NCBI GenBank assembly: GCA_030587475.2
Contig: JAUQYZ020000224.1
Location: 1 to 10,952, forward strand
DNA length: 10,952 nt
Direction: 5' to 3'
Source of the DNA: Candidatus Sigynarchaeum calidifontis
GTDB lineage: Archaea; Asgardarchaeota; Lokiarchaeia; Sigyniarchaeales; Sigyniarchaeaceae
A program made the translations under genes and the position numbers. Shown here piece after piece: positions 243-10,952 of the stretch (positions within the stretch are counted from its first letter, which is position 1; each line of letters opens with the position of its first letter). The notes under the pieces are model-generated. The model was not told the origin of the DNA, did not search any database, and saw nothing but the letters and a program-made list of their open reading frames with translations.

Positions 243-1604
243 ATGCGAGCTTGGAAACCAAGTTCCAGGACGGCAAAATTTGCCGCTTTATTGTTCACGT
301 GGGGCAGCTTCGCCTTGCTCCTCGCCGGGGGACTAATGCTGCTCGAATTCTACGAGGAGAGCGTTACCCCATATATTGGATCCTTTTGCATCGTGGTTAT
401 CGGGACGGGAACGATGTTCGCATTCTTGACGTGGGGAATTTTGCGTGACAAGAAGATCTCGACTGCCGATCGCGTGCCTCTCGTCTTTTGGACATGTATC
501 GTGCTCGCCGGTGGCATGGCGGGCACGATCATCGCGGGCCCGAAGTTGAACGAGTATATCTCCACGTCGCCCTACCTCACGTGGATCGACGGGCAGGATC
601 CGAGCTCTGCAATCACGGTCAATTGGATCACGACATATCCAACTACCGATTCTGTTTCTTACGGGACGAACCGCTGGTCGCTCACGCAAGTCGCACCTGC
701 CGGCGTCAACACGCGCTTCCACCACGCAGTATTGACCGGCTTGGCGTCAAACACGACCTATTATTACCAGGTGCCTGGATTTCCCGTCAAACAATTTAAA
801 ACTGCCCCGACGGGTGCGTTCAATTTCACTTTTTACGCGTGGACGGATCACAGGACGAATTCGGATTATGTTCTATCTTGCTTCCAGCCGAACGTCGTGG
901 AGGGCATCGCGTCCTACGCCGCCACGAAAGGGGTGCCGGGCGCATTTAGCATCTGCTGCGGGGATATCACATCCACGTCCAACGATTATCAAGGCTGGGA
1001 CGTGTTCTTCAACGACATTGCCTACCAGGATTGGACGGCCAACAAGTCGCTGCAGCTAATCTATGGCAACCACGAGCGGAACGGCGACCCGGGTAAAGTC
1101 ATCGTAAAGAACATGTTCCCGTACCCGCAAAAGGCTGACACCAACTTTTTTTACTCGTTCGATTACGGTATGGCGCACTTCATCATGCTAGACCCTTATG
1201 ACATCGGCCACTCGTGGTCGTCCGAGTTCTCGGCAGAGCAACTCGCGTGGCTCGAGAGCGATCTCGCGGCGAGCACGGACGCGAACTTTACCTTGATTTT
1301 CATGCACCCGCCCCCGTGGAGCCTTGGCGGCGTGAGGACAGCGCTCGCGCGGTTGGTCAATATCGAGGGCTACGACATCGACGTTATTTTTTGCGGCCAT
1401 GACCACGTCTTTGACCGCCGGATCCTCGCCACAACCTCGATCCCGGTGCTCACGCTTGGTCTCGGCGGAAACCCGACCAGTGAATACAGCGATTTTGATT
1501 GCGACACGGCATTCGCACGGTTCGACATCTCGACCACCGGGATCGAGGTGACGTCCATATTCATCAACGGTACCATCCTGGACACCTTCACGATCCCGGC
1601 GTGA
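243..1604 (+). CDS. Membrane-anchored metallophosphoesterase (3 N-terminal TM helices + purple acid phosphatase N-terminal FN3-like domain + calcineurin-like catalytic domain)
   Basis: Three hydrophobic segments in aa ~13-100. FN3-like 'ITVNWIT...VSYG...HHAVLTGLASNTTYYYQV...FKTAP'. Metal motifs D(HR) 846-854, GD 960-965, GNHE 1065-1076, FMHPP, GHDH 1395-1406. Confidence 0.88.
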   Translation: MRAWKPSSRTAKFAALLFTWGSFALLLAGGLMLLEFYEESVTPYIGSFCIVVIGTGTMFAFLTWGILRDKKISTADRVPLVFWTCIVLAGGMAGTIIAGPKLNEYISTSPYLTWIDGQDPSSAITVNWITTYPTTDSVSYGTNRWSLTQVAPAGVNTRFHHAVLTGLASNTTYYYQVPGFPVKQFKTAPTGAFNFTFYAWTDHRTNSDYVLSCFQPNVVEGIASYAATKGVPGAFSICCGDITSTSNDYQGWDVFFNDIAYQDWTANKSLQLIYGNHERNGDPGKVIVKNMFPYPQKADTNFFYSFDYGMAHFIMLDPYDIGHSWSSEFSAEQLAWLESDLAASTDANFTLIFMHPPPWSLGGVRTALARLVNIEGYDIDVIFCGHDHVFDRRILATTSIPVLTLGLGGNPTSEYSDFDCDTAFARFDISTTGIEVTSIFINGTILDTFTIPA

Positions 1605-1627
1605 GCTCGCTGGTTCCTCCATTTAGC

Positions 1628-1634
1628 TTTTTTT
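1628..1634 (+). terminator. Oligo-T (archaeal-type) terminator candidate after the phosphoesterase
   Basis: T7 run 24 nt after the stop codon, with no GC-rich stem in front of it. Confidence 0.45.
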
Positions 1635-1685
1635 GCTCACGGCTCGTTATACTATTCCTCCATCAATGCATCATGGGCATATGCC

Positions 1686-2537
1686 ATGAAGATCCCCGCA
1701 AAACCGCTCGCACGCGGCATGAACTGGGTCGTGAAGATAGACGAGTTGCCGTGGGATGACCCGCGAAACGCGAAAATGGACTTTGCTATCCTGTTGCTCG
1801 AAAAAAGCCAGACCATCGTTATCGACCAGCCCCTCGAAAAGGCGTTCTTGCTGCTAAAAGGTGACGCCGTGCTATCGTGGAAGGACATGATCACGGGTAA
1901 AGTCATCGAGAAGAATGTAAAGCGCGCATCATTTTTCGACGAGGATCCGCATTGCTTGCACGTGCCTGCATCCGTGGCCGTCACGATCACCTCCGCCGCT
2001 TCGGTTCAAAGCGAGCTTGCCATCTTCATGACGCGGAACGAGACTTCTTTTTCCCCGAAGCTCTACCTCCCTTCCGAATGCCGCAGCGAGCAGCGGGGCG
2101 AGGGTACCATGCGCGAGACGTCGACCCGCATCGTGCGCACGATCTTCGACATCGACAACGCGCCCGATGCCAAGCTCGTCCTCGGCGAGGTCATCAATTA
2201 CCCCGGGAAATGGTCGAGCTATCCCCCGCACAAGCACCCCCAACCCGAGATATACCACTACCGGTTCTTGCCGGAGAACGGGTTCGGGTTTTGCATGCTC
2301 GGCGAGGACGTGGTGAAGGTAAAGCACGGCGACACGGTCAAGATCTTTGGCGTCGAGCACCCGCAAACGGCGGGACCTGGCTATGCAATGTTCTACATCT
2401 GGGCCATCCGCCATCTCGACGGGAACCCGTACGGCGCCAAGTTCGGAACTCCCATCTTCGACCCCGAACACGCGTGGGTCATGAAAAAGGAGAACGATGA
2501 TAAGATCTGGCCACCGCCGGCCAAGTTCAAGAAGTGA
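1686..2537 (+). CDS. iolB: 5-deoxy-glucuronate isomerase (IolB/KduI cupin family)
   Basis: 'R...R.VRTIFD...LVLGEVINYPGKWSSYPPHKH..PEIYHYRF.PENGFG' is the IolB signature; the stop lies 7 bp before iolD. Confidence 0.92.
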   Translation: MKIPAKPLARGMNWVVKIDELPWDDPRNAKMDFAILLLEKSQTIVIDQPLEKAFLLLKGDAVLSWKDMITGKVIEKNVKRASFFDEDPHCLHVPASVAVTITSAASVQSELAIFMTRNETSFSPKLYLPSECRSEQRGEGTMRETSTRIVRTIFDIDNAPDAKLVLGEVINYPGKWSSYPPHKHPQPEIYHYRFLPENGFGFCMLGEDVVKVKHGDTVKIFGVEHPQTAGPGYAMFYIWAIRHLDGNPYGAKFGTPIFDPEHAWVMKKENDDKIWPPPAKFKK

Positions 2538-2544
2538 AGCAAAC

Positions 2545-4452
2545 ATGCCACACGAGAAAACGATCCGTTTGACCATGGCGCAGGCACTCGTGAAGTTCCT
2601 GGGCCAACAATACATCGAGATCGACGGGACGAGGCATAAATTCGTGAAGGGCGTGCTCGGCATCTTCGGGCACGGCCAGGTGACTGGCCTCGGCCAAGCG
2701 CTCGAGCAATTCCATGAAATCTTGAAATACTACCGCATACAGAACGAGCAAGGCGGCGCGCTGCTCGCGACGGGTGCCGCGAAGCACCTCAACAGGTTAG
2801 GCTGCTTTGCCGTGACGTCATCGATCGGGCCGGGCACGACCAACCTCGTGACCGCGGCCGCCGCGGCGACGACGAACCATGTCCCTCTACTGCTATTAAC
2901 AGGAGATATCTTCGTCGACCGCCAGCCCGATCCCGTCCTCCAGCAGATCGAGCACCCGCATGACTTGAACATCCAGGCAAGCGACGCCTTGCGCCCTGTT
3001 TGCCGGTACTGGGATCGCATCGTCCACCCGCAGGCACTAATGACCAGTGCGATCAACGCGATGCGTGTCCTGACCGACCCGGTCGACACGGGCGCGGTAT
3101 GCATGGCTCTTCCCCAAGACATCCAAGACGTCGCTTACGACTACCCGGAGGAATTCTTCAAGGAACGCGTCCACCGCATCGATCGTCGCCCGATTTCGAA
3201 GGCATCGCTCGACGTTGTGGTCAAAAAGATCCAATCGAAGAAACGTCCCTTGATCATTGCAGGCGGCGGCGTGCACTATTCCCTCGCCACGAAATCGCTC
3301 AAGTCGCTCGTCGAACGGACTGGTATCCCCGTCTCGTTTACGACTTCGGGAAATAGCGCCTTGCGGTGGGATCACCCCCAGAACCTCGGCGGGACAGGCG
3401 TGATGGGCACGGCGGCTGCTAACATAATCGCAAAATCGGCTGACTTGATCATTGCCATCGGCACGCGGCTCATGGACTTCACGACCGTGTCGAAGGCCGC
3501 GTTCCAAGCTCCCGGCGTCGAGATCGTGGCGATCAACGTTTCCAATTTCGATGCGTACAAGATGGACGCGATCCAAGTGCTTGCCGATGCGCGGGAGGCG
3601 ATAGACGCGATCAACAAGGAGCTGACGGCCGCCGGGTACCATGTCGATGCCGCTTACCAGGCCGAGTACACCAGGCTCAAGCAGGCATGGGACAAGGAGG
3701 TCGATCGCCTCAGGGGAATCAAGCCAGATGCGGGCGATGTCCACTTGCCACAGCCAGCAGCCATCGGCGTGCTCAACGATTTCATGGGGGATGACGACAT
3801 CGTCATCAACGCCGCGGGCAGCATGCCCGGCGACCTCCTCCGGACGTGGCGGTGCAAAGAGCCAAAGACCTTCCACGTCGAATACGCGTATTCGACTATG
3901 GGTTATGAAATTGCCGCGGGGCTCGGTATCAAGCTCGTTGACCCGGATCGCAACGTGTACGTGATCCAGGGCGATGGCGGGTATCTCATGATGCACACGG
4001 AGATCGTCACGAGTCTCATGGAACACAAGAAGCTCGTGATCTTGCTGTTCGACAGCGAGGGCTTCAACAGCATCAACGGCCTCGCGACCGGGCACGGCTC
4101 CGAAGGCTTCGGCAAGGGCTCCAAGGGCTTCGGGAACGAGCTGCGCGATCGTGATCCCGAGACCGACAAGCTTGTCGGGCCCATCCACTTGATCGACTAT
4201 GCTGCCAGCGCACGCGCCTATGGTGCCGCCGCATACACGGTCAAGTCCCTCGAGGAGCTCAAGGAAGCACTCCAAAAGGCGCAAAAGGAAGACAAGACCA
4301 CGCTCATCCACTTGAAGATCAAGGAATTTTCGCAATCCCCCAACTACGAGTCGTGGTGGCGGGTCGGCGTGGCGGAAGTGAGCACGATGCCCAAGGTCAA
4401 GGCCGCCCGGGCGAAAATGGACGAGAACATGAAGACGGTACGCAAGTATTGA
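2545..4452 (+). CDS. iolD: 3D-(3,5/4)-trihydroxycyclohexane-1,2-dione acylhydrolase (ThDP-dependent)
   Basis: N-terminus 'TIRLTMAQALVKFL', 'GIFGHG', 'NEQG', 'TSSIGPG', 'RQPDPVLQQIE', 'EYAYSTMGYEIAAGLG', 'GDGGYLM', C-terminal 'WWRVGVAEVS'. ATG 2545 preferred over the track start 2497, which overlaps iolB. Confidence 0.96.
   Translation: MPHEKTIRLTMAQALVKFLGQQYIEIDGTRHKFVKGVLGIFGHGQVTGLGQALEQFHEILKYYRIQNEQGGALLATGAAKHLNRLGCFAVTSSIGPGTTNLVTAAAAATTNHVPLLLLTGDIFVDRQPDPVLQQIEHPHDLNIQASDALRPVCRYWDRIVHPQALMTSAINAMRVLTDPVDTGAVCMALPQDIQDVAYDYPEEFFKERVHRIDRRPISKASLDVVVKKIQSKKRPLIIAGGGVHYSLATKSLKSLVERTGIPVSFTTSGNSALRWDHPQNLGGTGVMGTAAANIIAKSADLIIAIGTRLMDFTTVSKAAFQAPGVEIVAINVSNFDAYKMDAIQVLADAREAIDAINKELTAAGYHVDAAYQAEYTRLKQAWDKEVDRLRGIKPDAGDVHLPQPAAIGVLNDFMGDDDIVINAAGSMPGDLLRTWRCKEPKTFHVEYAYSTMGYEIAAGLGIKLVDPDRNVYVIQGDGGYLMMHTEIVTSLMEHKKLVILLFDSEGFNSINGLATGHGSEGFGKGSKGFGNELRDRDPETDKLVGPIHLIDYAASARAYGAAAYTVKSLEELKEALQKAQKEDKTTLIHLKIKEFSQSPNYESWWRVGVAEVSTMPKVKAARAKMDENMKTVRKY
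4096..4137 (+). repeat. 21-bp in-frame tandem duplication inside iolD (GSEGFGK/GSKGFGN)
   Basis: GGCTCCGAAGGCTTCGGCAAG (4096-4116) vs GGCTCCAAGGGCTTCGGGAAC (4117-4137): 17/21 identical. Confidence 0.7.
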
Positions 4453-4458
4453 TGCGCC

Positions 4459-4487
4459 CTCTTTTTCCAGCTTTACTTTTTATCTTT
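4459..4487 (+). terminator. Pyrimidine/oligo-T terminator candidate for iolBD, overlapping the 3' end of the convergent hydrolase gene
   Basis: CTCTTTTTCCAGCTTTACTTTTTATCTTT follows the iolD stop; only 20 bp separate the convergent stop codons. Confidence 0.4.
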
Positions 4488-5615
4488 GCTCAACGAAGTG
4501 AACGCGGCGATCGCGGCATCGTTGCCCTGGAGGGCATTGGCCGGGCGCGGGTGGCTTGAATCGAACGCGGCCATGGTTTCACGGGTCTCTATAATGTTAC
4601 TTGCCATGTCCCACGTCCCGTCAGCGTTCTTGGCACCATCGATGGCGAGCCGGAGATGCTTGGCGAAAAATGCGAAGACCTGGGCTCGCTTGGATGGGCC
4701 ATAATCATGTTTCTCGTCGGGGATGTGGAATTGCTCGAGCTTGTCCGCGGCCCCGTAGAGCTCGTAGTGATGCCGAATGAACGGGTACTCGAGCACGGGC
4801 ACGAACCTGCTCCAGTCCCTCCCGATGGAGACGATGAGCTGGGGGCGCGGGGCGGCCATGGCCGCGATCTCGGCGTTATTCGTCTTGTAGCCGGCTCCCT
4901 TGTGTATCGGCATCCCGCTCTCGCAAATGCAACCGCCGAAAAAGAACGACGACACCATGACCACCGGTGCGCTTATTGTGACCCGGTCATCGATCGCCGC
5001 AAGCATGAACGCTTGCGTCCCGCCTCCAGATGCCCCGCTCACGCCGACCCGCGACGGGTCAGCACGTGGCAAGGACAAGGCGAAATCGAGGGAGCGGATC
5101 GAGTTCCAGAGCTGCATCTGGAAAGCTCGGGGGTTGTTGTGGGATACTTGCGTACTATCGTTATAACCGACCATGTCATAGGCGAAGGCATAAGCCCCCA
5201 TCCGGGCCATCGTCGCTGCGAGGTGCTGGAGGTCGGGCTCGAAGCGGCCGAGCTTGAAGTGACCGTGCGGGAGCAAGACGATGGCCACGCTCTTCGGCAA
5301 ATCCAACGGGGAGTACAAGTTTCCCGACACGTAAAAACCCGGGATGCTCTCGAAAAACACGTTCTCCACGGCATATGTCCCGTGCTCCCTGCGGCTATGG
5401 ATGACGGGGTTCAGCGGGGACTTCGCGGGCGGTGGCCACAAGCCCGCAGTGGAAAGGATGCCCTGGCGGATGGTGGCCTTGCGTGCCTCCCACGCGTCCC
5501 TGGTCGGTGCGAGCTTGAGCAATTTTCTCAAGTTTTGCTCGCCGTAGGAGCGGAAGCGAAAACCCAATGCCCACTTGTAGGCCTTGTCTGCGATGGTATA
5601 GCGTGGCTGCACCAT
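4473..5615 (-). CDS. Alpha/beta-hydrolase, acetylxylan esterase-like carbohydrate esterase
   Basis: Nucleophile elbow GASGGG (5019-5036), 'VENVFFESIPGFYVSGNLYSP', 'LLPHGH', 'YDMVGY', 'GGCICESG', 'AAPRPQLIVS.G.DW', and candidate catalytic His in 'EKHDYG'. No signal peptide evident. Confidence 0.85.
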   Translation of the reverse strand: MVQPRYTIADKAYKWALGFRFRSYGEQNLRKLLKLAPTRDAWEARKATIRQGILSTAGLWPPPAKSPLNPVIHSRREHGTYAVENVFFESIPGFYVSGNLYSPLDLPKSVAIVLLPHGHFKLGRFEPDLQHLAATMARMGAYAFAYDMVGYNDSTQVSHNNPRAFQMQLWNSIRSLDFALSLPRADPSRVGVSGASGGGTQAFMLAAIDDRVTISAPVVMVSSFFFGGCICESGMPIHKGAGYKTNNAEIAAMAAPRPQLIVSIGRDWSRFVPVLEYPFIRHHYELYGAADKLEQFHIPDEKHDYGPSKRAQVFAFFAKHLRLAIDGAKNADGTWDMASNIIETRETMAAFDSSHPRPANALQGNDAAIAAFTSLSKDKK

Positions 5616-5683
5616 GCATTATCACGGGATGAGGCAATGAAGGCACCTATGCTTTTTTGGGTTTCCCGGTGAGAGATCGTATC

Positions 5684-7531
5684 ATGAGTCAAAAACCAAA
5701 CGTCCTCATCTTTTTCACGGATGACCAGCGGTTCGACACGATCCACGCGCTGGGGTACGACGAAATGATCACGCCGAACATGGATCGCCTCGTGGCGATG
5801 GGCACCGCGTTCACGCACGCGCACATCCCGAGCGGCACGAGCGGGGCAGTCTGCATGCCTAGCAGGGCGATGCTCTTGACTGGTCGATCCTTGTTTCACA
5901 TCCACGGTGCTGGCGAGACCATACCGGCAAGCCATGCCATGATCGGGGCAACTCTCCGCGAGCACGGATACAAGACGATCGGCATCGGCAAGTGGCACAA
6001 CGGCAAGGAGACCTTCAACCGGTGTTTTTCCGATGGAAGGGAAATATTTTTCGGAGGCATGGCGGATCACTGGAACGTCCCCGCCTTTGACTACGACCCC
6101 GCGGGCAAGTACGTTGGCAGCTGCAAGTACATCAAGGACCCGTTTCGCTCGAACAAGGTCGAGTTCCGGGACTACGACCACATGCAAGAGGGAAAGCATT
6201 CCAGCGAGCTGCTCGCCGGAGCCGCCATTCAATGGCTCCAAGAACACGACAAGTCGGTGCCCTTCTTCATGTACCTCGCATTCCTTGCACCGCACGATCC
6301 TCGAACGATGCCCGAGCGCTTCTTGAACATGTACGACGAGAACAAGATCAAGCTTCCGCCCAATTTCATGCCCAAGCACCCGTTCGACAACGGCGACTTG
6401 TACGGCCGGGACGAGAACCTTGCCCCGTGGCCACGCACTCCCGAGATCGTGCGCCGTCACCTGAAGGAATACTACGCCATGATCACGCACCTCGATCACG
6501 AGATCGGGCGGGTGCTCGACGTGCTCGAAGCGCGGGGAATGCTGGACAACACGATCATCGTCCTCGCCGGGGACAACGGGCTTGCGATAGGCCAGCATGG
6601 CCTCTTCGGAAAGCAAAGTTGCTATGAACATAGCAACCGCGTGCCGCTGGTCTTCGCCGGGCCAGGCATCCCGGTGGGCAAGCGGTCCGACGCTTACGTG
6701 TATCTGTTCGACATCTACCCCACGATCTGCGAGCTGTTGGGCATTGAAATTCCTCCCGGCGTCGACGGGCGGCCATTGCTGTCCAGCATGAAGGATGCAA
6801 GCGATAAGCAGCGCGAGTACATGTTTTATGCCCACCGTGGCTTCACGCATTCGGTCAAGGATCGAAAATACAAGCTCATCGAAACCGTGCTCGGCGGGAA
6901 GCACGCGAAAACCCAATTATTCGATATCGATACAGACCCGTGGGAGACCCAGGACTTGGCCGGCGACCCGCATCAGAGCGGCACGATCCGGCGGCTGCGC
7001 GAGCAGCTTGCCCGGTACCGGGACGAGTGGGACGAGCTCGACACGCCGTGGGGCATCGAGTTTTGGCGAGGACTTGCAAGGACATGTCCCGACTTGTGCA
7101 AGGAACCGGCCTTGTTCGCCACGAACCGGGTAGCAATCGAGGGGACGATCCTGATCGATGATGACGGCGTCGTATGTATGAAGGTACAATTCTCGCCGCA
7201 AAACACGGCCTTGTTCGACGTGCCGATACAGGAGCTGGTCGAATTCGCCCTGGACAAGGAGATCGTGCTCCAAGTGTCGGGTAAGAGCCATGTCGGCCAG
7301 CTGCATGTTGATGCCAGGGGTCATCTAGCCTTCACGAGGCGCGAGGGACGTGAAACAGTCCCTGTTACATCGTTGATCCCGGCACAACTCGTCGGCACGG
7401 CCGCCGTCCTGCAATCATGGTCTGATATCCCTGATAAGGACATCGCGATGCTGGCCGGTACAGATGCGAACGCAGAGGCGGTCAAGGCACTCGCCATGCC
7501 GAGGGTCATCATCCGGGCAGCTCGGCCCTAA
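5684..7531 (+). CDS. Formylglycine-dependent (S1) sulfatase with ~150 aa C-terminal extension
   Basis: '[13 protein letters not shown]', CxPxR motif '[12 protein letters not shown]' (5852-), 'GKWH', 'APHDP', 'GDNG...GQHGLFGKQ', 'DIYPTICEL'. ATG 5684 with GGTGA at 5668-5672. Confidence 0.93.
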
Positions 7532-7606
7532 CGATCGTCCTTTGATCCTCCATCAGAACAACTTGGCTACCACAAGAGTCGCCGGGTGCCATTTTTCGAG
7601 GTGTCC

Positions 7607-7627
7607 CGGGGAAGCTTTTAAACCCCG
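7607..7627 (+). promoter_or_regulatory. Archaeal-type TATA box candidate for iolEG inside an inverted repeat
   Basis: CGGGG-AAGC-TTTTAAA(7616-7622)-CCCCG; purine-rich bases precede the TATA box (BRE-like position). Confidence 0.45.
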
Positions 7628-7663
7628 ACGTGGATTTAGGTGGCGAACACTTACTTGATCAGC

Positions 7664-7706
7664 CGATGTACAATTTCTTCCATAACATGTTTCAAAAAAG
7701 ACATCG
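7664..7706. promoter_or_regulatory. Putative operator upstream of iolE
   Basis: ATGT(7666-7669)-N15-ACATGTTT(7685-7692) has the same spacing as the motif at 165-191. CGATGT (7664-7669) and ACATCG (7701-7706) are also inverted repeats. Confidence 0.4.
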
Positions 7707-7801
7707 ACCAAATCACTTCGGGATCGAGATGTAAGCATCCTGTTATTCAAATCGCGTGATGGTAAAAGGATTTCAATCATCTAATGGAGGAATCGAGTGA
7801 A

Positions 7802-8704
7802 ATGCTTGATCCAAAAAAAATAAAACTCGGGATCGCACCGATTGCCTGGTGCAATGACGATATGCCCGAACTCGGTGGTGAAACCACGTTCGAGCAAATC
7901 ATCAAGGAAATGGCCGAGGCTGGCTATCAAGGCAGCGAGGTCGGCAACAAGTACCCGAAAGATCCCGCGGTGCTCAAGAAGGCACTCGCGCCGTACAAGC
8001 TATCCATTGCGTCCCAATGGTTCAGCTCGTTCTTCACGACCAAGGACCAAAAGGAGACCATCGAGGCGTTCAAGAAGCACATGGCCTTCCTCAAGGCGAT
8101 GGGCGCCAAGGTCATCGTGATCTCAGAGCAAGGCAACAGCATCCAGGGCCAGATGGACACGCCGCTGTTCGACAAGAAGCCCGTGCTCGACGAGGCGGGC
8201 TGGAACAAACTGGCGAAGGGACTCGAGACGATCGGTGCACTCGCGGTCAAGGAAGGAATGAAGATCGTGTACCACCATCACATGGGCACGGTCGTGCAAA
8301 CCGCTGCCGAGGTGGACAAGCTCATGGCCAAAACCGACCCGAAGCTCGTCTGGCTCCTGCTCGACACGGGGCACATGTACTATTCCGACGGGGGAAACAG
8401 CCCGCTCGAGGTGCTCGAGAAGCACGCCAAGCGCATCGCCCACGTGCACCTCAAAGACATCCGAGACCCCGTCAAGAAAAAAGTGATCGACAAGAAGCTA
8501 TCATTCCTCCAATCCGTGAAGGAAGGCGTGTTCACGGTTCCCGGCGATGGTGCCGTCGATTTCAAGCCCATCTTCGAGGGACTCGCGAAAGCCAAGTACG
8601 AGGGCTGGTTCATCGTCGAAGCCGAGCAAGACCCGGCGAAGGCTAACCCCCTGGAGTATGCCAAGAAAGCCAGGGCATACATCAAGACAGTAGCAAGACT
8701 ATAG
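7802..8704 (+). CDS. iolE: myo-inosose-2 (2-keto-myo-inositol) dehydratase
   Basis: 'KLGIAPIAWCNDDMPELGGE.TFEQ', 'YHHHMGT', 'LLLDTGH', 'HVHLKD.R', 'FTVPGDG', 'VEAEQDP..ANPLEYA'. ATG 7802 preferred (GGAGG at 7786-7790); 7784 is an alternative start. Confidence 0.97.
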   Translation: MLDPKKIKLGIAPIAWCNDDMPELGGETTFEQIIKEMAEAGYQGSEVGNKYPKDPAVLKKALAPYKLSIASQWFSSFFTTKDQKETIEAFKKHMAFLKAMGAKVIVISEQGNSIQGQMDTPLFDKKPVLDEAGWNKLAKGLETIGALAVKEGMKIVYHHHMGTVVQTAAEVDKLMAKTDPKLVWLLLDTGHMYYSDGGNSPLEVLEKHAKRIAHVHLKDIRDPVKKKVIDKKLSFLQSVKEGVFTVPGDGAVDFKPIFEGLAKAKYEGWFIVEAEQDPAKANPLEYAKKARAYIKTVARL

Positions 8705-8736
8705 ATCCTTGATAGGATGATTCAGGTGAAATGAAA

Positions 8737-9756
8737 ATGGCAGACAAACAATTCGTTGTTGGTATTCTGGGCGCGGGCCGCATCGGCAAGATCCACGCGG
8801 CAAACTGCGCCCAGATTCCCGGTGTTAAAATCAAGACAATCGTCGACTTGAAGGTTGACGGGCTCAAGGATTTCGCTGCGAAGCTTGGCGTGCAGAAACT
8901 ATCCACGGACCCGAAAGATATCTTTGGTGACCCCGAGATCAACGCCGTCCTCATCTGTTCGAGCACGGACACGCACGCGAAATTCATCGTGGAAGCTGCA
9001 AAGGCAAAGAAAGACATCTTTTGTGAAAAACCCATAGATTACGACATCAAGCGCATCAAGGATACCCTCGCGGCGGTGGACAAGGCCGGGGTGAAGCTCA
9101 TGATCGGCTTCAACCGCCGCTTCGACCACAACCACAAGCGTGTCCGTGATGCGGTCGTGAATGGAGAGGTCGGGAAGGTCCACATCGTGAAGGTGACGTC
9201 GCGCGACCCGTCCCCGCCACCCATCGAATACGTGAAGGTATCGGGCGGTCTTTTCTTTGACATGACGGTGCACGATTGGGACATGCTCGCCTACCTTGCA
9301 GGCGAGGATATCGTTGAAGTGTATGCCGCTGGTGGCGTGCTAGTCGATCCCAAGATCGGCGAGGCTGGCGACATCGACACGGCGGCGGTTGTCGTCAAAT
9401 TCAAGAGCGGTGCAATGGGTCTCGTCGACAACTCGCGCCAAGCCGTCTACGGTTACGACCAGCGCACGGAAGTCTTTGGATCCAAGGGTGGTGCATGGGT
9501 CGATAACGATTTCCCGAACACGGCCAGGATCTACAATGACAAGATCGTCGGCGGCGACAAGATGCACCATTTTTTCCTCGAGCGATACATGGGCTCTTAC
9601 CGGGCGGAGCTTGAAGAATTCTTTGATTGCCTCGCGAAAAACAAGAAACCTTCTGTCGGGGGCATCGACGGCCTCAACGCGGTGCTCGTCGCCACGGCTG
9701 CTAAGAAATCCCTCGAGGAGAACCGGCCGGTCAAGATCAGCGAAATAAAGGCTTAG
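8737..9756 (+). CDS. iolG: Inositol 2-dehydrogenase (Gfo/Idh/MocA family)
   Basis: Rossmann 'GILGAGRIGKIHA', 'CEKP', 'GFNRRFD', 'TSRDP.PPP..Y...SGGLFFDMTVHDWD', 'YGYDQR.EVFGSKG', 'FFLERY'. AGGTGA at 8724-8729 is 7 nt before ATG 8737; 8731 is an alternative start. Confidence 0.95.
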   Translation: MADKQFVVGILGAGRIGKIHAANCAQIPGVKIKTIVDLKVDGLKDFAAKLGVQKLSTDPKDIFGDPEINAVLICSSTDTHAKFIVEAAKAKKDIFCEKPIDYDIKRIKDTLAAVDKAGVKLMIGFNRRFDHNHKRVRDAVVNGEVGKVHIVKVTSRDPSPPPIEYVKVSGGLFFDMTVHDWDMLAYLAGEDIVEVYAAGGVLVDPKIGEAGDIDTAAVVVKFKSGAMGLVDNSRQAVYGYDQRTEVFGSKGGAWVDNDFPNTARIYNDKIVGGDKMHHFFLERYMGSYRAELEEFFDCLAKNKKPSVGGIDGLNAVLVATAAKKSLEENRPVKISEIKA

Positions 9757-9962: not shown

Positions 9963-10026
9963 CATCATATTAATCAAGCTCGCAATCATATGAATGGATA
10001 TTGAAAACCACGGCAGAACGATTAAA

Positions 10027-10611
10027 ATGTTTGATGATGCAACCTTTTATTCGGTGTTAGGGATAGCGATCGGGCTAGCAGCGTTCTTGATAATCTTCTT
10101 GTTATTTGTCAAGAAACTGATGCCCCATCCTTTGATGATGAAGGTCACTGCGACCTTGCACGCTTGCTTGTTCGGCTATGAAACCGCCATGATCGAGCTC
10201 ATCGGCCCCCGGGGATACCGGACACATGTTTTCCCCAAGATCATGGAGACCATCGCCAAGCTGAAGGGCGAAGACAAGCTGATCGACGCCGTCATGAACG
10301 CGAAAACGGCGAAAGAAGCGATGGAACGGTGGATCGAGGTGTTGAAGCTCACCAGGATCTCCAAGGATGCAAACATAACAGATTATGGCGATGGGAGCTA
10401 TCTGATCAACATCCCCCACTGCCTGATGTGCAACCCGATCCACAACGTGATGGGAACCGACGTGAAGGGCATCTGTCCGATGGCTTTCATCGTCGGCGCG
10501 GCTAGTTCTTTCGGAGAGAAAGGAAAAACAGTCGAGATGGATTACAGCAAGATAACGCCCACGGGGACGTCAACGAGAATCGTCTTCAAGGACAGCGAGC
10601 CAGTGAAATAA
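10027..10611 (+). CDS. Membrane-anchored hypothetical protein with V4R/MetOD1-like (H-NOX/Bet3-fold) Cys-motif domain
   Basis: One N-terminal TM (VLGIAIGLAAFLIIFLLFV, then KK). Helical region, then 'YLINIPHCLMC.PIH...GICPMAFIVGAA...KTVEMDYSKITPTGTSTRIVF', matching the strand-C...C-helix-strand-strand layout of V4R-like domains. Start 10027 or 9994. The CDS is solid; the family call is tentative. Confidence 0.6.
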   Translation: MFDDATFYSVLGIAIGLAAFLIIFLLFVKKLMPHPLMMKVTATLHACLFGYETAMIELIGPRGYRTHVFPKIMETIAKLKGEDKLIDAVMNAKTAKEAMERWIEVLKLTRISKDANITDYGDGSYLINIPHCLMCNPIHNVMGTDVKGICPMAFIVGAASSFGEKGKTVEMDYSKITPTGTSTRIVFKDSEPVK

Positions 10612-10634: not shown

Positions 10635-10952
10635 ATGATCAAATCCTATCTCATCATGAGCAGCTCGGGGGTCCCCTTGTATACCCGGTCTGTCGAAAAG
10701 GTTTTTGATGAAACGCTCGTGAGCTGCTTTTTAAGCGCTATCCAGAGCTTCGCGAAGGGGATTAGCCAGTCTTGCATCGATAAGATAGACATGGAGAAGA
10801 TGACTTTTTTTTACGCATTCAAAGGCCCCATCTTCTCTATCATCGTTGCTGAAACAGCTGACGAAACGGAAAGCCGGGTTTACCGCATAATAGCGGAAAG
10901 ATTGGGTCGTAGTTTCATCAACAAATATTCCGCCGAGTATATTAACAAGTAT
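10635..10952 (+). CDS. Longin-like domain protein (3'-truncated by window edge; not in ORF track)
   Basis: 106 open codons: MIKSYLIMSSSGVPLYTRSVEKVFDETLVSCFLSAIQSFAKGISQSCIDKIDMEKMTFFYAFKGPIFSIIVAETADETESRVYRIIAERLGRSFINKYSAEYINKY. Pattern b1-b2 ('LI...G.PLY'), a1 ('DETLVS.FLSAIQSFA'), b3-b5, a2 ('LGRSFINKY') fits the longin fold. Confidence 0.8.
   Translation, partial: MIKSYLIMSSSGVPLYTRSVEKVFDETLVSCFLSAIQSFAKGISQSCIDKIDMEKMTFFYAFKGPIFSIIVAETADETESRVYRIIAERLGRSFINKYSAEYINKY

Follow-up and report, generated by a model that had tools for sequence, protein, structure and literature searches.

A Loki-type Asgard archaeon with a putative inositol-catabolic island of very probable bacterial origin

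Results

Genes of the inositol pathway

The window analysed here is a stretch of DNA of 10,952 bp (G+C 56%) that forms one entire contig (C134) of a metagenome-assembled genome (MAG) of Candidatus Sigynarchaeum calidifontis, a Loki-type Asgard archaeon (Promethearchaeota); the genome (G000) comprises 4.99 Mb in 269 contigs, with a completeness of 89% and a contamination of 5.2%. Nine genes lie in the window, in the order PAP-like metallophosphoesterase (PAP, purple acid phosphatase), IolB-like isomerase, IolD, alpha/beta-hydrolase esterase, sulfatase, IolE, IolG, a membrane protein and the beginning of a longin-type gene, and we read them as the upstream two-thirds of an inositol-catabolic gene island that continues on a 72-kb contig of the same genome (C242), adjoining the window at its right end. 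The original prediction, made from the window, described four inositol-catabolic (iol) genes mingled with genes for a phosphoesterase, an esterase and a sulfatase, next to a longin-like gene, and this description holds: the seven genes that it named are all intact open reading frames (ORFs) with the coordinates given below. The most informative part of the island, a transaldolase-like gene and IolA on C242, lay outside what that reading could see.

The four iol genes of the window are all on the forward strand. IolD occupies an ORF at 2497–4452 with a likely start at 2545 (Met17), in agreement with the alignments of its orthologues, which start near residue 17–22. It scores 838 bits against TIGR04377, for which the equivalog cut-off is 715, and has all three domains (TPP_enzyme_N, M and C) of thiamine diphosphate (ThDP) enzymes; IolD is the ThDP-dependent ring-opening hydrolase of the pathway, 3D-(3,5/4)-trihydroxycyclohexane-1,2-dione acylhydrolase. 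IolE (myo-inosose-2 dehydratase; 7784–8704) gives 437 bits with TIGR04379 (equivalog cut-off 290) and 123 bits with AP_endonuc_2, the xylose-isomerase-like TIM barrel, and IolG (inositol 2-dehydrogenase; 8731–9756), which has both the N- and C-terminal GFO/IDH/MocA domains, gives 455 bits with TIGR04380 (equivalog cut-off 355). The gene at 1686–2537 matches Pfam KduI/IolB at 173.5 bits, and its sole PDB match is 2QJV, an 'IolB-like protein'. It shares 44–55% identity with the IolB of Clostridia, Lucifera and Spirochaetota, whose gene, as in the window, immediately precedes IolD, and only 27–30% with IolB of Bacillales; we file it as IolB-like, a putative 5-deoxy-glucuronate isomerase of the type found in anaerobes. 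The uronate isomerase KduI was rejected as a candidate for this gene, which has no KduI match in NCBIfam or the PDB and is co-inherited with IolD. From the established functions of the four families, IolG would oxidise myo-inositol, or a stereoisomer of it, to inosose, IolE would dehydrate the inosose, IolD would open the ring, and the IolB-like isomerase would yield 5-dehydro-2-deoxy-D-gluconate (DKG).

Beyond the window, C242 begins with the remainder of the longin gene (C242:1–478, continuing the C134 frame), followed by a flavodoxin-like gene on the reverse strand (C242:620–1141), a gene for a transaldolase-family protein of 365 residues, here called TAL, on the forward strand (C242:1330–2427) and, on the reverse strand, IolA (C242:2457–3938), the CoA-acylating (methyl)malonate-semialdehyde dehydrogenase, which scores 479.5 bits against TIGR01722 (subfamily cut-off 448.5). 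The latter two genes thus lie 1.5–4 kb past the window end. TAL matches PF00923 at 137 bits, with a best transaldolase equivalog score of 114 against a cut-off of 367, far under all cut-offs for transaldolases and for fructose-6-phosphate aldolase (FSA), and on these scores is a member of the Pfam superfamily that belongs to no characterised subfamily. In common with E. coli FSA and transaldolase B it has the PF00923 fold family, the Schiff-base Lys (K145 in VKIPVT), the active-site Asn and Thr and the first Arg of the distal anion site; a second Arg of that site would be expected from the TalB motifs. In alignment with the PDB transaldolases, however, an invariant Gln replaces the catalytic Glu and an invariant Met replaces the Phe, and the length of the family is about 360 residues. 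FSA itself has Gln at the position of the transaldolase Glu, and a catalytic Tyr at that of the Phe. The TAL family is large, with more than 8,000 matches at E < 1e-20, and its members share 62–70% identity across phyla.

The distribution of TAL follows that of IolD. We compared the locus with those of relatives from three families of the host order (f1, f2 and f4), including the congener G001, the genomes G002, G003, G019, G023 and G027, and the metagenome contigs L131 and L133 (the latter of 313 kb); G000, G001 and L131, with about 80–87% nucleotide identity, form one genus (g1). Among 61 relatives, the TAL gene is found in exactly the five that carry IolD and no other has a TAL-family match at E ≤ 1e-10, and in G001, G023, G027, L131 and L133 it lies in or beside the iol block. 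A similar picture emerges from loci elsewhere. Of 60 genome loci that are anchored on IolD and span 12 kb or more, 29 have the kinase IolC, with or without the aldolase IolJ, 6 have a split transketolase and 3 have TAL, with no overlap between the three groups. The contexts of TAL homologues were taken from one metagenome scan, in which IolD lies within 10 kb in 12 of 39 TAL-anchored loci of at least 6 kb, and in 5 of the 8 that are fully flanked, and none of the 16 metagenome loci with both TAL and IolD has IolC, IolJ or transketolase. In G000 (89% complete) IolC (TIGR04382) was not found, the top score being 150 bits where the cut-off is 300 and the highest identity to a verified IolC 26%, and the split transketolase of the closest bacterial blocks has no match in that genome. 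The complete canonical iol pathway is therefore lacking, there being no IolC and no IolJ-type aldolase beyond generic class II homologues.

Enzymes of the transaldolase and FSA type need donors with a free hydroxymethyl group beside the keto group, which DKG has and DKG-6-phosphate has not. The C6-C5-C4 end of DKG has the same free hydroxymethyl-keto-hydroxy motif as the C1–C3 end of fructose-6-phosphate, and its C1 carboxylate lies where the distal phosphate would sit. Because of this resemblance such an enzyme could cleave unphosphorylated DKG, and DKG-6-phosphate is an unlikely substrate, since transaldolases and FSA refuse donors phosphorylated on that hydroxymethyl. In the mechanism that we propose, TAL would form a Schiff base via Lys145 with the C5 keto group of unphosphorylated DKG and cleave between C3 and C4, splitting off malonate semialdehyde; it would then either free dihydroxyacetone or pass the three-carbon unit to an acceptor aldehyde, which may be glyceraldehyde-3-phosphate, giving fructose-6-phosphate. 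IolA would convert the malonate semialdehyde to acetyl-CoA. A dihydroxyacetone kinase (Dak1) was looked for in the 89%-complete genome and not found, a weak hint at the transfer mode over the release of dihydroxyacetone. TAL, judging from its sequence and context, probably replaces the IolC kinase and IolJ aldolase steps.

The textbook lower pathway might instead be run by an unlinked PfkB kinase and a class II aldolase, with TAL a pentose-phosphate enzyme that lies nearby by chance. G000 does encode eight generic PfkB kinases (98–150 bits against the IolC model) and three class II aldolase homologues (34–35% identical to IolJ), and most metagenome TAL loci have no iol gene nearby. However, none of these kinases reaches the IolC cut-off, the confinement of TAL to the five IolD carriers argues that it is not a housekeeping enzyme of the order, and in the loci examined it is mutually exclusive with IolC and IolJ. 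The low transaldolase scores, the missing catalytic Glu and the general requirement for a free hydroxymethyl group, had by DKG and not by its 6-phosphate, also speak against it, and we consider this explanation improbable. Our reading in full, in which the Loki-type lineage would catabolise inositol by a complete kinase- and ATP-free route, with TAL acting on unphosphorylated DKG and a six-gene module taken from bacteria as one block, is put forward tentatively, with a little less than an even chance of being right in all its parts.

Distribution and acquisition from bacteria

Five of the 61 relatives carry IolD, as do 5 of 400 Asgard genomes, and all five belong to families f1 and f2 of one order. 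We built quick maximum-likelihood trees from the best 80 loci of the scans; in these trees, for which the root position is not known and from which the true donor lineage may be missing, the Asgard IolD sequences fall into a single clade among bacterial ones, with a support of 99 by the approximate likelihood ratio test (SH-aLRT), there is likewise one Asgard clade for IolG (97), for IolE (seven sequences; 90) and for IolA (100), and the IolB and TAL trees are compatible with a single Asgard clade. The non-Asgard members of the IolD, IolE, IolG and IolB trees are named bacterial genomes, and for TAL and IolA the sequences nearest to the Asgard ones come from metagenome contigs without an organism name. 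The bacterial blocks nearest in sequence have the same B-D-E-G order at 52–65% identity and come from anaerobic Bacillota, Spirochaetota, a few Gammaproteobacteria and MAGs of Desulfocapsaceae. Because the genes are rare in Asgard archaea and broadly spread in bacteria, and each forms one Asgard clade, we conclude that the island was very probably acquired from bacteria by an ancestor within this order, probably as one block and once; thereafter the genes would have been inherited with frequent losses, or have spread to some extent among members of the order. The horizontal acquisition supposed in the original prediction is in this way borne out.

The order of the genes varies among the carriers. 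In G001 and L131 the whole island lies on a single contig in the order IolB-IolD-esterase-sulfatase-IolE-IolG-CE15 esterase-flavodoxin-TAL-IolA, with an additional AHSA1-domain gene between IolG and the CE15 esterase in L131. In the other carrier family, the blocks of G023 (IolB-IolD-IolE-TAL-IolA-IolG), G027 (IolB-IolD-IolE-IolG-TAL, with an MFS transporter nearby) and L133 (IolB-IolD-IolE-IolG-TAL-IolA) are compact and without the three hydrolases of the window. On a 10-kb contig of G019 (C367), which lacks IolB and IolG, a GH3 glycosidase gene of opposite orientation stands between IolD and IolE, and the flanks hold a penicillin-amidase-family gene and a TIR-LRR gene. The IolG of G001 (contig C327, 8449–9471) is only 66% identical to that of G000, with flanking genes at 85–94%, and groups in the tree with the IolG of L133, which suggests a single-gene replacement of IolG within the G001 cluster.

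Asgard origin of the DNA

We next to these results set the evidence on the host. G000 encodes a eukaryote-type actin (436 bits) and the archaeal ribosomal protein S3Ae; rRNA genes (RF01959, RF00177) were not found in the MAG, so that the host taxonomy rests mainly on protein markers. The last two genes of the window tie the locus itself to the host. The first of them (9994–10611, forward) encodes a single-pass membrane protein with a Cys-rich C-terminal part (CxxC...C), whose orthologues, 82% identical in G001, 75% in G003 and 47–60% in families f2 and f4, always lie beside a longin gene. The second, of which the window holds the first 106 codons (10635–10952, forward, to the contig end), is of the longin/roadblock type, with a Fuz_longin_1 score of 24.7 bits, slightly under the Pfam cut-off, and an assignment confirmed by orthologues. 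The two genes are adjacent in genomes of all three families, and the identity of the pair broadly tracks taxonomy, being 82–86% within the genus, 75–81% in G003 (a single-contig assembly of the same family) and 40–76% in families f2 and f4.

The longin gene is itself cut by the contig end. Of the last 49 nt of C134, 46 agree with the first 49 nt of C242, and the longin frame runs through, giving a protein of 248 residues across the join, and one ORF of 258 residues in G003 matches both halves (81% and 78%), as does a single ORF in G001; for these reasons we take the two contigs to be neighbours. Besides this inexact match, the only match of the C134 ends to other contigs is an exact one of 20 nt to C225. 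What G001 and L131 have from the stop codon of IolG to that of flavodoxin is replaced in G000, neither more nor less, by the membrane-protein/longin pair, which G000 alone has inside the island. Since each of the two junctions is internal to a contig, we regard this as a real rearrangement and not a chimera.

Bacterial contamination of the bin, or a chimeric assembly, would be the obvious alternative for bacterial-type genes in a MAG of this completeness and contamination, and it might draw on the difference between that segment of G000 and the CE15 esterase (with AHSA1 in L131) found there in its relatives, as well as on the fact that all iol-carrying relatives are fragmented MAGs, IolD being found in 0 of 90 high-quality Asgard genomes. 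Against this, conserved Asgard genes are flanked on both sides by genes of the island, with both junctions within contigs, and the longin gene broken at the contig end is restored by single ORFs in two other genomes. The iol block is present on seven independent Asgard contigs, a recurrence that also argues that the clustering is not due to chance; one of them is the 313-kb L133, on which the genes flanking the block are 49–57% identical to G000 genes, and the iol contig of G023 also carries a longin-Roc GTPase gene. The tetranucleotide make-up of C134 is typical of G000 (67th percentile of contig distances), and that of the iol segments falls within the range of random 3-kb pieces of the genome. 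Additionally, across the five genomes the identity of IolD is highest in the congener (90%) and lower in family f2 (58–69%). The contamination or chimera reading is already largely refuted, and we give it only a very slight chance. With actin, an archaeal ribosomal protein and small-GTPase/longin genes linked to the locus, and with the join to the 72-kb contig, the DNA of the window is genuinely Asgard, as the original prediction had thought probable.

The three hydrolases

The gene at 243–1604 (forward) encodes a phosphoesterase with Pur_ac_phosph_N (35.5 bits) and Metallophos (34.2 bits) domains, two to three N-terminal hydrophobic segments and several NxT sequons, and is predicted to be a binuclear metallophosphoesterase that is membrane-anchored and probably faces outward. 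The motifs GNHE, FMH and GHDH are kept, but GDITS stands in place of the GDxxY of PAPs, so that the Tyr ligand is gone, and the nearest solved relative, the wheat purple acid phytase (6GIT/6GJA), matches at only E 5e-11. An assignment as PAP or phytase was rejected on account of the missing GDxxY and the remoteness of this match, and the gene is filed as a PAP-like metallophosphoesterase.

The second hydrolase gene, at 4473–5615 on the reverse strand, encodes an alpha/beta-hydrolase esterase that aligns over about 350 residues (20–370) with the catalytic module of BT1017 (PDB 6GOC; E 2.5e-69, 237 bits, about 50% identity). It keeps the GxSxGG motif, as GASGGG, and an Asp and a His in motifs that we take, by position, to correspond to the catalytic D352 and H388 of BT1017. 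Homology, triad and GxSxGG motif place it in the BT1017 methylesterase family; unlike BT1017 it has no signal peptide and no DUF3826 domain, and it would probably be a cytoplasmic member of this pectin/rhamnogalacturonan-II methylesterase family. BT1017 is a Bacteroides methylesterase that is essential for the use of rhamnogalacturonan-II (PMC7939467).

The third is a sulfatase, encoded on the forward strand by an ORF that runs from 5657 (TTG), or more likely from 5684 (ATG), to 7531. It matches PF00884 (164 bits) and SGSH_C (62 bits), and the Cys-type maturation motif CMPSR at residues 66–70 (for formylglycine), together with an anaerobic sulfatase-maturating enzyme encoded on contig C31 of G000 (TIGR03942, 480 bits against 349), makes it a type I (formylglycine) sulfatase. 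As in the esterase, no signal peptide was found. Among solved structures it comes nearest, at low identity, to glycan and choline sulfatases, and its C-terminal region of about 150 residues (window 7090–7531, residues ~470–615), which has no Pfam match, is common to the G001 orthologue and in part to that of G002 and is absent from the orthologues of 509–513 residues in G019 and G023.

The original prediction proposed that these hydrolases strip phosphate, acyl or sulfate groups from substituted inositols, such as phytate, inositol lipid head groups or compatible solutes, for the iol enzymes to burn the ring. The three genes do lie inside the iol block, in an arrangement kept in G000, G001 and L131; the phosphoesterase probably faces outward and has a phytase as its nearest solved relative, and unrelated HAD hydrolases lie near iol genes in L133 (3776–4468) and G023 (L014:14733–15485). 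However, comparison of neighbourhoods across Asgard MAGs shows the linkage in genus g1 only, where synteny is expected by descent alone at the nucleotide identities observed. IolD and IolE are adjacent in G023, G027 and L133, and the window hydrolases are not linked to iol genes in G019 either; the esterase and sulfatase orthologues of G002, G003, G019, G023 and G027 lie on other contigs, away from iol genes and among unrelated neighbours. In bacteria, no homologue of any of the three was found within 8 kb of IolD at 77 loci. The esterase is of a pectin methylesterase family, the match to phytase is remote with the PAP Tyr ligand missing, and a cytoplasmic sulfatase and esterase beside a probably external phosphoesterase would not make a single compartmental pathway. 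G000 has at least 9 paralogues of the phosphoesterase and at least 13 of the sulfatase, and the two paralogue neighbourhoods that were annotated (on C86 and C242) are rich in genes for carbohydrate-active enzymes (CAZymes), with GH2, GH29, GH127 and CBM96 genes. We consider the unmasking of inositols by these enzymes unlikely, and a conserved phosphatase partner of the iol block was likewise rejected, the HAD proteins of L133 and G023 being non-orthologous (20% identity) and recurring nowhere else. A phosphoesterase paralogue (35% identity) on contig C86 (28000–42000) also adjoins a ThDP enzyme, 23% identical to IolD, and this pair sits among genes for a GH29 fucosidase, a molybdopterin oxidoreductase, GH127 and DUF362 proteins.

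Signals between the genes were also looked at. Behind the genes for the phosphoesterase, IolD, the sulfatase and IolG there are oligo-T tracts, as is usual for terminators in archaea (T7 between the phosphoesterase stop and IolB, T8 after the IolG stop), and the 252 bp that separate IolE from the gene before it contain a TATA-like TTTTAAA, which suggests that the hydrolases are transcribed separately from the iol genes. We take the three hydrolases to be genus-specific insertions from the glycan-degrading repertoire of the organism that are not part of the inositol route.

A further possibility is that the whole island is part of a glycan-utilisation region, in which the iol-like enzymes act on some other cyclitol or a keto-sugar acid from sulfated or methyl-esterified polysaccharides. 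CAZyme genes lie beside the iol blocks in several carriers (CBM96 and GH2 on C242, GH29 and GH78 in L133, GH3 in G019), the window esterase is a BT1017-family member, a CE15 glucuronoyl esterase gene accompanies IolG in G001 and L131, and the IolB-like protein stays under its equivalog cut-off. Nevertheless, IolG, IolE, IolD and IolA pass cut-offs that were built on inositol-pathway enzymes, and B-D-E-G recurs as a unit in inositol clusters of bacteria, where no such hydrolases are present. We know of no cyclitol that is released from such glycans, and think this account has a small chance of being correct.

Neighbouring regions

Directly downstream of IolA on C242 (4774–13000) come genes for two dCache/HAMP sensors, of which one carries a fusion with TPR and VWA domains, and then for a CBM96 protein and a GH2 glycosidase; the two sensors are candidates for the regulation of the catabolic region. 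A second cluster with a cyclitol flavour is found on contig C35 of G000 (1–13000), with genes for a CE15 glucuronoyl esterase, a NUDIX protein, two tandem members of the myo-inositol-1-phosphate synthase family, an S51 peptidase, a DegT-type aminotransferase, an MFS transporter and a PfkB kinase. This cluster may make or break an aminocyclitol or an inositol derivative.

Discussion

The island can be compared with several known systems. As in the iolABCDEFGHIJ operon of Bacillus subtilis, the genes are clustered, IolG, IolE, IolD and IolA pass the NCBIfam models, an isomerase of the IolB family is present, and the ending from malonate semialdehyde to acetyl-CoA is kept. The Asgard cluster differs in its host, in having no orthologue of IolC or IolJ and the Gln-type TAL gene in their place, in an IolB of the divergent 'anaerobe' type, and in the absence of an IolR-type repressor and of a transporter from the island. 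The closest likeness is to the TAL-type, kinase-free clusters of Alkalispirochaeta (L099) and about 15 metagenome contigs, where a TAL at 62–70% identity and with the same Glu-to-Gln change lies amid IolD, IolE, IolG, IolB and IolA with no IolC or IolJ; the Asgard version is archaeal, and has hydrolase genes within it, joined in G000 by a gene pair native to Asgard archaea. The closest IolB, IolE and IolG sequences (53–65% identity) are found in a third kind of cluster, that of Lucifera butyrica (L062) and a member of the Clostridiaceae (L056), which shares the IolB-IolD-IolE-IolG order but has a two-part transketolase upstream of IolB, no TAL and no IolA. The upper four steps and IolA can thus be counted among the iol-type inositol catabolic clusters, with a lower part that is an uncharacterised variant of transaldolase type; what is new here is the archaeal occurrence and the exact co-distribution of TAL and IolD.

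Taken jointly, an island acquired from bacteria, a route finished by TAL and IolA, and hydrolases that stand outside it make up the explanation that fits best, and we hold it to be fairly probable. Of the original prediction, the bacterial-type iol cluster in an Asgard archaeon and its acquisition from bacteria stand, and the role of the hydrolases as inositol unmaskers does not.

Several points weigh on the other side. The substrate identity of the iol enzymes rests on family scores, and the IolB-like protein gives 91 bits with TIGR04378, for which the equivalog cut-off is 205. TAL lacks both known acid/base residues, the Glu of transaldolase and the Tyr of FSA, which makes its chemistry uncertain; 27 of the 39 TAL metagenome loci show no iol gene nearby, so other roles are possible, and the PfkB kinases and class II aldolases of G000 could supply the textbook steps. 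No inositol transporter was found in the G000 island. The trees have the limits given above, and the carrier genomes are all MAGs of 80–89% completeness and 4–6% contamination. Finally, three species-level lineages have retained the esterase and sulfatase between IolD and IolE, which gives a functional tie a small chance, though the adjacency of a sulfatase, an esterase and a phosphatase in a CAZyme-rich genome should not be taken for a substrate link.

According to a survey of 2022, which covered 1,511 archaeal genomes, only 5 of these have iol clusters and no Asgard genome is among the 5; its published conclusion, that bacteria alone possess the trait (PMC9430895), is contradicted by the present finding. 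A modelling paper predicts that myo-inositol is donated to Asgard archaea (PMC9746113). Our literature search found no paper linking Asgard archaea to iol genes or inosose, and none describing such a transaldolase-like enzyme in inositol catabolism.

The transfer of catabolic modules into Loki-type archaea is in itself not surprising, and the island is a clean case of a multi-gene catabolic module that passed from bacteria to an Asgard lineage and was kept. If the proposed role of TAL is true, its taking the place of IolC and IolJ would give a textbook pathway a new ending that saves ATP and is widespread in uncultured anaerobes, and the Asgard copies, through their exact co-distribution with IolD, lend this replacement independent support. 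For the archaea themselves, whose physiology is known from very few cultures, the locus adds a defined and testable heterotrophic capacity, which would, if confirmed, be the first inositol-catabolic capacity assigned to the Asgard archaea. Inositol or other cyclitols could then be a carbon source for these organisms, and might aid their enrichment and cultivation.

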